NCBI RefSeq assembly: GCF_056712565.1
Contig: NZ_CM160072.1
Direction: 5' to 3' (one strand)
Length of the DNA stretch: 64,000 bases
Positions 32,224-35,570 of the stretch are shown one piece after another; within the stretch, counting starts at the first letter, position 1, and the number at the start of each line of letters is the position of its first letter. The notes under the pieces were generated by a model, which saw only the letters and a list, made by a program, of their open reading frames with translations, made no database searches and was not told the DNA's origin. A program made the position numbers and the translations under genes.

Positions 32224-33597
32224 ATGGAAAGTAAGAACAAGCTAAAGCGTGGGCTAAGTACCCGACACATACGCTTTATGGCACTGGGTTCAGCAATTGG
32301 CACCGGGCTGTTTTACGGTTCGGCAGATGCCATCAAAATGGCCGGTCCAAGCGTGTTGTTGGCCTATATTATCGGTGGTATCGCGGCGTATATCATTATG
32401 CGTGCGCTGGGGGAAATGTCGGTACATAACCCGGCAGCCAGCTCTTTCTCGCGTTATGCGCAGGAAAACCTCGGCCCGCTGGCAGGTTACATTACCGGCT
32501 GGACCTACTGCTTTGAAATCCTTATTGTCGCCATCGCCGATGTGACCGCTTTTGGTATCTATATGGGTGTCTGGTTCCCGACGGTGCCGCACTGGATTTG
32601 GGTACTGAGTGTGGTGCTGATCATTTGCGCCGTAAACCTGATGAGCGTGAAGGTATTCGGTGAGCTGGAGTTCTGGTTCTCGTTCTTTAAAGTCGCCACT
32701 ATCATCATCATGATTGTCGCCGGTTTCGGCATCATCATCTGGGGGATTGGCAACGGCGGGCAACCGACCGGTATTCATAACCTGTGGAGCAACGGCGGCT
32801 TCTTCAGTAACGGCTGGCTTGGTATGGTGATGTCGTTGCAAATGGTGATGTTTGCTTACGGTGGGATCGAAATTATCGGGATTACCGCCGGTGAAGCGAA
32901 AGATCCTGAGAAATCGATTCCGCGTGCGATTAACTCCGTGCCGATGCGTATTCTGGTGTTCTACGTCGGTACGCTGTTCGTCATTATGTCTATCTACCCG
33001 TGGAATCAGGTTGGCACTGCCGGTAGCCCGTTTGTGCTGACGTTCCAGCATATGGGCATTACCTTTGCCGCCAGCATTCTTAACTTTGTTGTGCTGACCG
33101 CTTCGCTGTCGGCAATTAACAGTGACGTATTTGGTGTAGGCCGTATGCTCCACGGTATGGCAGAGCAGGGCAGCGCGCCAAAAATTTTCAGCAAAACCTC
33201 GCGTCGCGGTATTCCGTGGGTTACGGTGCTGGTGATGACTACCGCGCTGCTGTTTGCGGTGTATCTGAACTACATCATGCCGGAAAACGTCTTCCTGGTG
33301 ATCGCTTCGCTGGCAACCTTCGCCACGGTGTGGGTGTGGATTATGATCCTGCTGTCGCAAATCGCCTTCCGTCGCCGTTTGCCGCCAGAAGAAGTTAAGG
33401 CGCTGAAATTTAAAGTGCCGGGTGGGGTAGCAACGACCATCGGCGGTTTGATTTTCCTGCTCTTTATTATCGGGTTGATTGGTTATCACCCGGATACGCG
33501 TATCTCGCTGTATGTCGGTTTCGCGTGGATTGTTGTGCTGTTGATTGGCTGGATGTTTAAGCGCCGCCACGATCGTCAGCTGGCTGAAAACCAGTAA
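32224..33597 (+). CDS. proY: APC-family amino-acid permease ProY
   Basis: [34 protein letters not shown]...; second ATG of ORF taken. Confidence 0.94.
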
Positions 33598-33755
33598 TCC
33601 TTGCGTTCTGTAAGCCGGTTCAGGAGGAAATCCTGATCCGGCTATTCCGAAAGTTATCCGCCCCCGTCCTCCTCCCCCAAATATCCTTCAGATGATGAGT
33701 GATCCTGCATTAGGCTATGGCAAGGTGATCAGATTTTCATCACAGGGGAATTATG

Positions 33756-35570
33756 ATGTTAAATGCATGGCATCTGCCGGTGCCCCCATTTGTTAAACAA
33801 AGCAAAGATCAACTGCTCATTACACTGTGGCTGACGGGCGAAGACCCACCGCAGCGCATTATGCTGCGTACAGAACACGATAACGAAGAAATGTCAGTAC
33901 CGATGCATAAGCAGCGCAGTCAGCCGCAGCCTGGCGTCACCGCATGGCGGGCGGCGATCGAGCTCTCCTGCGGACAACCTCGGCGGCGTTATAGTTTCAA
34001 ATTGCTGTGGCACGATCGCCAGCGTTGGTTTACACCGCAAGGCTTCAGCCGAATGCCGCCAGCACGACTGGAGCAGTTTGCCATTGATGTACCGGATATC
34101 GGCCCACAATGGGCTGCGGATCAGATTTTTTATCAGATCTTCCCTGATCGTTTCGCCCGTAATCTTCCTCGTGAAGCTGAACAGGATCATGTCTATTACC
34201 ATCACGCAGCCGGACAAGAGATCATATTGCGTGACTGGGATGAACCGGTCACGGCGCAGGCTGGCGGATCAACGTTCTATGGCGGCGATCTGGACGGGAT
34301 AAGTGAAAAACTGCCGTATCTGAAAAAACTTGGCGTGACGGCGCTGTATCTCAATCCGGTGTTTAAAGCTCCCAGCGTGCATAAATACGATACCGAGGAT
34401 TATCGCCATGTCGATCCGCAGTTTGGCGGTGATGGGGCGTTGCTGCGTTTGCGACACAATACGCAGCAGCTGGGAATGCGACTGGTGCTGGACGGCGTGT
34501 TTAACCACAGTGGCGATTCCCATGCCTGGTTTGACAGGCACAATCGTGGCACGGGGGGAGCTTGTCACAACCCCGAATCACCCTGGCGTGACTGGTACTC
34601 GTTTAGTGATGATGGCACGGCGCTCGACTGGCTGGGCTATGCCAGCTTGCCGAAGCTGGATTATCAGTCGGAAAGTCTGGTGAATGAAATTTATCGCGGG
34701 GAAGACAGTATTGTCCGCCACTGGCTGAAAGCGCCGTGGAATATGGACGGCTGGCGGCTGGATGTGGTGCATATGCTGGGGGAAGCGGGTGGGGCGCGCA
34801 ATAATTTGCAGCACGTTGCCGGGATCACCGAAGCGGCGAAAGAAACCCAGCCGGATGCGTATATTGTCGGCGAACATTTTGGCGATGCACGGCAATGGTT
34901 ACAGGCCGATGTGGAAGATGCCGCCATGAACTATCGCGGCTTCACATTCCCGTTGTGGGGATTTCTTGCCAACACCGATATCTCTTACGATCCGCAGCAA
35001 ATTGACGCCCAAACCTGTATGGTCTGGATGGATAATTACCGCGCAGGGCTTTCTCATCAACAACAATTACGTATGTTTAATCAGCTCGACAGCCACGATA
35101 CTGCGCGATTTAAAACGCTGCTCGGTCGGGATGTTGCGCGCCTGCCCCTGGCGGTGGTCTGGCTGTTCACCTGGCCTGGTGTACCGTGCATTTATTACGG
35201 TGATGAAGTGGGACTGGATGGCAAAAACGATCCGTTTTGCCGTAAGCCGTTCCCCTGGCAGGTGGAAAAGCAGGATTCGGCGTTATTCGCGCTGTACCAG
35301 CGAATGATTGCGCTGCGTAAGAAAAGTCAGGCGTTGCGTCGTGGCGGCTGTCAGGTGCTGTATGCGGAAGATAACGTGGTGGTATTTGTCCGCGTGCTGA
35401 ATCAGCAGCGTGTACTGGTGGCAATCAACCGTGGCGAAGCCTGTGAAGTGGTGCTACCCGCGTCACCGTTGCTTAATGTCGCGCAATGGCAACGCAAAGA
35501 AGGTCACGGGCAACTGACGGACGGGATTCTGGCTTTGCCTGCCATTTCGGCTACGGTGTGGATGAATTAA
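33756..35570 (+). CDS. malZ: maltodextrin glucosidase (GH13)
   Basis: 604 aa; GH13 motifs [29 protein letters not shown]. Confidence 0.95.

Follow-up and report, generated by a model that had tools for sequence, protein, structure and literature searches.

The gene malZ, encoding maltodextrin glucosidase, has been known to be controlled by MalT since 1991, and the design of MalT-dependent promoters is textbook material. The MalT-dependent activation of malZ is taken here from the literature on the MalT family and from the title of Tapio et al. (1991). In the same year, Vidal-Ingigliardi et al. named, in the title of their work, a motif made of two MalT boxes in direct repeat, and Richet et al. 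(1991, in Cell) are said to have found that CRP is required at malKp to move MalT to its productive register. MalT is a STAND ATPase, which oligomerises with maltotriose and ATP and whose DNA-binding domains then bind promoter sites cooperatively (PMC10427625). The published MalT box, GGGGA(T/G)GAGG, consists of the core GGA(T/G)GA flanked by two G on either side and overlaps the -35 region (PMC7567727). The promoter pulAp of Klebsiella and its synthetic mimic malPp800 depend on MalT only and carry four MalT sites (PMC10427625).

The locus described here lies within a window of 64 kb (i.e., the whole stretch of DNA that was analysed), of which positions 33400-33950 are 100% identical to the chromosome of E. 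coli ATCC 11775 and are matched in 5,424 of the 5,426 complete E. coli genomes. For this identical record, RefSeq annotates the genes brnQ, proY, malZ, acpH (on the opposite strand) and queA. Because proY ends at 33597 (stop codon at 33595-33597) and malZ starts at 33753 or 33756, the range 33600-33755, to which the first-pass annotation had assigned two MalT-box-like GGAGGA motifs upstream of malZ, is the proY-malZ spacer (i.e., 33598-33752 when the start of malZ is taken at 33753). Window positions are converted to those of the K-12 MG1655 record (NC_000913.3) by adding 388,762. The K-12 record has no annotated feature within this spacer, and an Rfam scan of 33400-33900 returned no known RNA element, its sole match being an miRNA at chance level (E = 0.87). 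The start of malZ is annotated at the first ATG (33753, 605 aa) in the ATCC 11775 RefSeq record and at the second ATG (33756, 604 aa) in K-12. Of the two ATGs, the second alone is kept in other genera, as is its 6-nt distance from the Shine-Dalgarno sequence AGGGGA.

The proY-malZ spacer is best explained as carrying a MalT-dependent promoter of malZ (malZp), whose three MalT boxes follow the malPp layout and precede an extended -10 (Table 1), a reading to which a probability of roughly 0.93 is given. The sequence, geometry, statistics and conservation on which it is based come from the present analysis, and binding, cooperativity and activation are drawn from the MalT literature. On the same footing, the conserved three-box promoter supports the earlier proposal that the spacer mediates activation of malZ by MalT.

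Table 1. Features of the malZ promoter region, in window positions.
Feature	Position	Strand	Description
Hairpin after proY stop	33613..33643	+	stems 33613-33625 and 33631-33643, loop GGAAA, 12-13 pairs
MalT box 3 (distal)	33655..33664	-	minus strand GGGGCGGATA, 7/10 to consensus, centre about -73.5
MalT box 2 (middle)	33668..33677	-	minus strand GGGGAGGAGG, 10/10 to consensus, centre about -60.5
Box 2-box 1 spacer	33678..33690		13 bp, A/T-rich, CAAATATCCTTCA; consensus of other genera CAATAAAC...
MalT box 1 (proximal)	33691..33700	+	GATGATGAGT, 7/10 to consensus, centre -37.5
Extended -10 TGgCAAGGT	33718..33726	+	TGGCAAGGT; -10 hexamer CAAGGT 33721-33726
Predicted transcription start (A)	33733	+	7 nt after the -10 hexamer; K-12 422495 (NC_000913.3)
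malZ Shine-Dalgarno AGGGGA	33744..33749	+	columns 82-99% conserved; 6 nt before ATG 33756
malZ, maltodextrin glucosidase	33756..35570	+	RefSeq annotation; start is the ATG conserved across genera

On the top strand, the layout reads TATCCGCCCC, cgt, CCTCCTCCCC, 13 bp, GATGATGAGT, 17 bp and TGGCAAGGT. Box 2 is the sole exact match to GGGGA(T/G)GAGG in the window, in which 0.1 exact decamer is expected on average from dinucleotide shuffles; the spacer hence holds at least one MalT box. Boxes 3 and 2 lie on the same strand as a direct repeat with exactly 3 bp between them, which is the direct-repeat arrangement of MalT promoters, and the same 3-bp spacing was seen in malPp, malKp and 74 of 79 malZ loci. 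A matrix trained on eight malP, malK and malE sites, one of which is identical to box 2, ranked box 2 first, box 3 32nd and box 1 83rd among 127,982 positions. Taken individually, boxes 1 and 3 of E. coli are weak, with 3 mismatches each. The three boxes were also searched for jointly, using a composite rule made of a bottom-strand box with at most 3 mismatches, N3, a bottom-strand box with at most 1 mismatch, N11-18 and a top-strand box with at most 3 mismatches. This rule, whose mismatch thresholds were chosen after the malZ site had been seen and whose spacing was taken from malPp and malKp, gave one match in the window, the malZ spacer, and none in 300 dinucleotide-preserving shuffles. A looser composite (at most 4, 3 and 4 mismatches) recovers malPp of K-12, with the same 13-bp gap, as well as malKp.

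The 3-bp periodicity of GGAGGAGGA and GATGATGAG gives rise to a second and weaker set of boxes, shifted 3 bp upstream from boxes 2 and 1, at 33665-33674 (minus strand) and 33688-33697 (plus strand), with 2 and 4 mismatches respectively, which recalls the staggered sites of malKp. The best box register in the malZ spacer is already the productive one. Elsewhere in the window, other single look-alikes of the MalT box with a high score are GGGGATGAGC at 9946-9955 (plus strand), which sits within a 364-aa ORF (9089-10183), and AAGGAGGAGG at 190-199 (plus strand). Both probably occur by chance, as neither appears in the three-box composite scan.

The positions of the boxes relative to the start of transcription (-37.5, -60.5 and -73.5) rest on the predicted -10, with CAAGGT taken as -12 to -7 and the TG as -15/-14. 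Relative to the predicted start, the hexamer TGATGA of box 1 is at -40 to -35 and replaces the -35 element; this matches the position stated for the MalT-box hexamer in MalT promoters (PMC7567727). A sigma-70 scan of the plus strand of 33400-33900 found no -35/-10 pair, as expected for an activator-dependent promoter, and the hexamer located 17 bp upstream of CAAGGT, AGTGAT, matches TTGACA at 0 of 6 positions. The nonamer of the extended -10 is identical in most loci and genera, its columns being 76-100% conserved within a peak that spans 33716-33727. In the start region, the block CATTTT (33732-33737) is 74-95% conserved. An alternative -10, TAGGCT (33711-33716), was rejected on account of its columns, which are 33-78% conserved and mostly 33-54%. 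Between boxes 2 and 1, an A/T block with the consensus AATAAA is observed at 33680-33685 (about -54 to -48); it is 56-96% conserved, with four of its six columns at 88-96%, and might provide an alpha-subunit contact or a bend.

Published start sites were also considered. No match to a mapped malZ start was found in the Cappable-seq supplements (PMC4782308). Working with cells without maltose induction, Kim et al. (2012; PMC3415461, supplement) assigned a weak malZ start 519 bp upstream of the gene, within proY (window position 33234, 5 reads), and a similar start 472 bp upstream in K. pneumoniae. The starts assigned in that study are not those of the MalT promoter.

Because variation within E. 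coli does not discriminate between parts of the spacer (i.e., 5,409 of 5,424 genomes reach at least 99% identity over the promoter part, and 5,322 of 5,395 do so over the hairpin part), conservation was assessed across genera. The sample comprised 80 malZ loci, with one genome per species, from Escherichia, Citrobacter, Salmonella, Enterobacter, Klebsiella, Raoultella, Kosakonia, Kluyvera and others; one locus (L083) came without upstream sequence, which left 79 usable loci. An alignment-free search recovered the three-box arrangement in 74 of these and in the window. In 62 of the resulting 75 sequences the gap between boxes 2 and 1 is 13 bp, and the gap between box 1 and the TG is 17 bp, also in 62 of 75; cases with 16 and 14 bp add up to the same total and hence represent an identical geometry in a register shifted by 3 bp. 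From the end of the -10 to the ATG, 29 nt are found in most loci. Conservation peaks at the three boxes, the AATAAA block of the spacer, the extended -10, the start region and the Shine-Dalgarno sequence, and the flanking columns are conserved at 30-55%. For box 2, the peak covers 33668-33678, with columns 33669-33677 at 78-100%, and for box 1 it covers 33692-33699, with the GATGAG columns at 74-100%. Across genera, conservation in box 3 is 73-100% at every column but 33660, whose consensus T reaches 54% and is replaced by G in E. coli. Furthermore, 11 loci that lack proY within 1.5 kb upstream keep the promoter block, which shows that the block belongs to malZ.

In most other genera, box 3 reads TCTCCTCCCC or CCTCCTCCCC. 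That of E. coli is among the more degenerate ones, and equally weak or weaker versions occur only in Kosakonia-type loci. Judging from the sequence, this degenerate box 3 may lead to weaker cooperative binding in E. coli. In three loci (L038, L039 and L062), boxes 2 and 3 are present and box 1 falls below the thresholds. Two further loci, from the metagenome-assembled genome UBA7338 (L050) and from Escherichia sp. ESNIH1 (L085), have a proY-malZ spacer of about 60 bp (positions ~1440-1500), in which neither MalT boxes nor TGGCAAGGT were found; in these two, malZ may be co-transcribed with proY or be under a different control. In Citrobacter and Salmonella (L013, L015, L016, L026 and L029), REP-like palindromes of the GCCGGATAAG...CCGGC types lie between proY and the MalT boxes, which lengthens the spacer and leaves the promoter block unmoved.

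The two strings quoted in the first-pass annotation are both present, TTCAGGAGGAAATCC at 33619-33633 (plus strand) and GGGGGAGGAGGA as its reverse complement, TCCTCCTCCCCC, at 33667-33678 (plus strand). They fared differently as MalT boxes. The second contains the exact and conserved GGGGAGGAGG (i.e., box 2), which ranks first in the matrix scan and whose centre, at -60.5, is the place of box 2 in malPp. The likeness of the first to a MalT box is at chance level and is not conserved even within Escherichia, and this motif has no defined place relative to the -35 and -10. Box 1, which would position RNA polymerase, and the weak box 3 had been missed.

It could be argued that both GGAGGA motifs are nonetheless MalT boxes, the one on the plus strand (33623-33628) acting as a fourth, far-upstream site that aids activation. 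Promoters with four MalT sites exist, as pulAp and malPp800 demonstrate (PMC10427625), and the first motif has an exact GGAGGA core and is placed by the matrix among the best 0.12% of the positions scored. However, such a score (rank 150 of 127,982) is reached about once per 430 bp, and in the box register the motif, CAGGAGGAAA, departs from the decamer at 4 positions, a match equalled at 3,125 positions of the window. It is located at -110 to -105 (about -107), at a distance from box 3 of 24 bp between decamers, or 26 bp from the hexamer, and has no partner box 3 bp away. In addition, the motif is buried, half in the stem and half in the loop, in the hairpin that follows the proY stop codon. 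This hairpin folds at -22.8 kcal/mol (z = -3.1), and none of 200 shuffles was as stable. In a comparison limited to four sequences, the stem is kept in the four Escherichia lineages with 2 compensatory pairs, and GGAGGA is lost in two of them: L007 reads CAGGGTAGAGCCTG and L008 reads ATAAAGGTAAGTCCTTAT, so that the motif becomes GGGTAG and AAGGTA, respectively. In both lineages the stem is kept and boxes 1-3 are unchanged or differ by one base of box 1. Other genera have unrelated hairpins in the same place. A fourth site is thus very unlikely, and the plus-strand GGAGGA lies outside the malZ promoter and forms part of the hairpin that follows proY.

The hairpin at 33613-33643 has the stem of a Rho-independent terminator but not the T-run that should follow directly, its tail being ATTCCGAAAG, and a terminator scan made no call. 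In Citrobacter youngae, the hairpin found at the same place is a canonical Rho-independent terminator, with a T-run abutting box 3. From its sequence and fold, the E. coli hairpin probably serves proY, as a 3′-end or stability hairpin, and is not a MalT site. It could also be imagined that the features specific to E. coli, namely the hairpin without a T-run, with its GGAGGA at about -107, and the degenerate box 3, act jointly. MalT might, for instance, occupy a fourth site specific to this lineage, or read-through from proY to malZ might be modulated by the bound MalT array. If true, malZ would be subject in E. coli to a control that is absent from other enterics, and this suggestion is a long shot.

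Another explanation would place the function of the C-rich tract 33655-33678 mainly at the RNA level, in the 3′ region of proY, for example as a C-rich, G-poor loading site for Rho, its likeness to MalT boxes being incidental. The tract is indeed very C-rich and lies downstream of the proY hairpin without a T-run, hence termination of proY in E. coli could require Rho. However, the constraint observed across genera tracks the MalT decamer, the 13-bp periodicity, the top-strand box and the fixed distance to the -10. The retention of the block in the 11 loci without an upstream proY and the canonical intrinsic terminator placed ahead of the same boxes in Citrobacter likewise speak against this explanation, which is considered highly improbable. 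Finally, that the motifs are functionless chance runs of purines or pyrimidines can be dismissed almost entirely: the GGAKGA hexamer alone is uninformative, since it occurs in the window about as often as chance predicts (53 times, with 45 expected), but the rarity of the exact decamer, the failure of shuffles to yield the composite and the conservation at fixed spacing across genera all argue against it.

The MalT-dependent promoter is therefore retained as the reading of the spacer, and the literature on MalT suggests how it would work. With maltotriose and ATP, MalT would form an oligomer that binds cooperatively to all three boxes. The exact box 2 would anchor this oligomer and aid the filling of the weak boxes 1 and 3. 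The MalT subunit on box 1 would then recruit or activate the sigma-70 RNA polymerase, substituting for the missing -35 contact. Transcription would start at about 33733, giving a 23-nt leader with the Shine-Dalgarno AGGGGA before the ATG at 33756.

The significance of these observations beyond the correct annotation of the malZ promoter is small. What is added here is a dissection of the promoter, in which only one of the two motifs is a real box and in which three boxes and an extended -10 are recognised. In addition, the analysis documents how rigidly the promoter geometry is kept across Enterobacteriaceae, together with two lineages without the boxes.

Compared with the known MalT promoters, malZp has three MalT boxes where pulAp and malPp800 have four sites, and the candidate for a fourth, the first motif, fails the tests described above. 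The resemblance to malKp of K-12 (malK-lamB-malM), which depends on both MalT and CRP, is closer. The distal pair of malKp reads TCTCATCCTC-ccg-CCTCCTCCCC, its second decamer being identical to box 2 of malZ. As in malZp, the proximal box of malKp is on the top strand and the spacer is A-rich, with CATAAAAAAG at the place of the AATAAA consensus block. In malKp, 14 bp separate the pair from the best proximal box, and the register with the correct placement lies another 3 bp on (17 bp), whereas in malZp the best register is already productively placed and no convincing CRP site is present. A search of the spacer for TGTGA-N6-TCACA with at most 2 mismatches gave a single match, TCAGATTTTCATCACA at 33729-33744, which is centred at about +4 and is not conserved in other genera; across the window, this pattern was found 23 times against 26.7 expected. 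It should be mentioned that malZ was listed as a new CRP target by genomic SELEX (Shimada et al. 2011, PMC3105977).

The closest relative in design is malPp, the promoter of malPQ in K-12. Its top strand reads GCTCATCCCC, gca, ACTCCTCCCT, 13 bp, CAGGATGAGG, 17 bp and then TGGCAAACT; hence malPp and malZp share the same layout, i.e., a pair of bottom-strand boxes separated by 3 bp and, after 13 bp, a top-strand box that is followed by a 17-bp gap. Both have an extended -10 of the form TGGCAA(A/G)(C/G)T and no -35 hexamer. The boxes themselves (GGGGATGAGC, AGGGAGGAGT and CAGGATGAGG in malPp) are unlike those of malZp and, unlike in malPp, box 2 is the strongest in malZp and boxes 1 and 3 are weaker. 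Without gaps, the two promoters are identical at 40 of 90 positions, which indicates a shared design rather than a duplicated sequence. The malZ promoter shows no sign of a new kind of element and is a MalT promoter of the already known malPp type.
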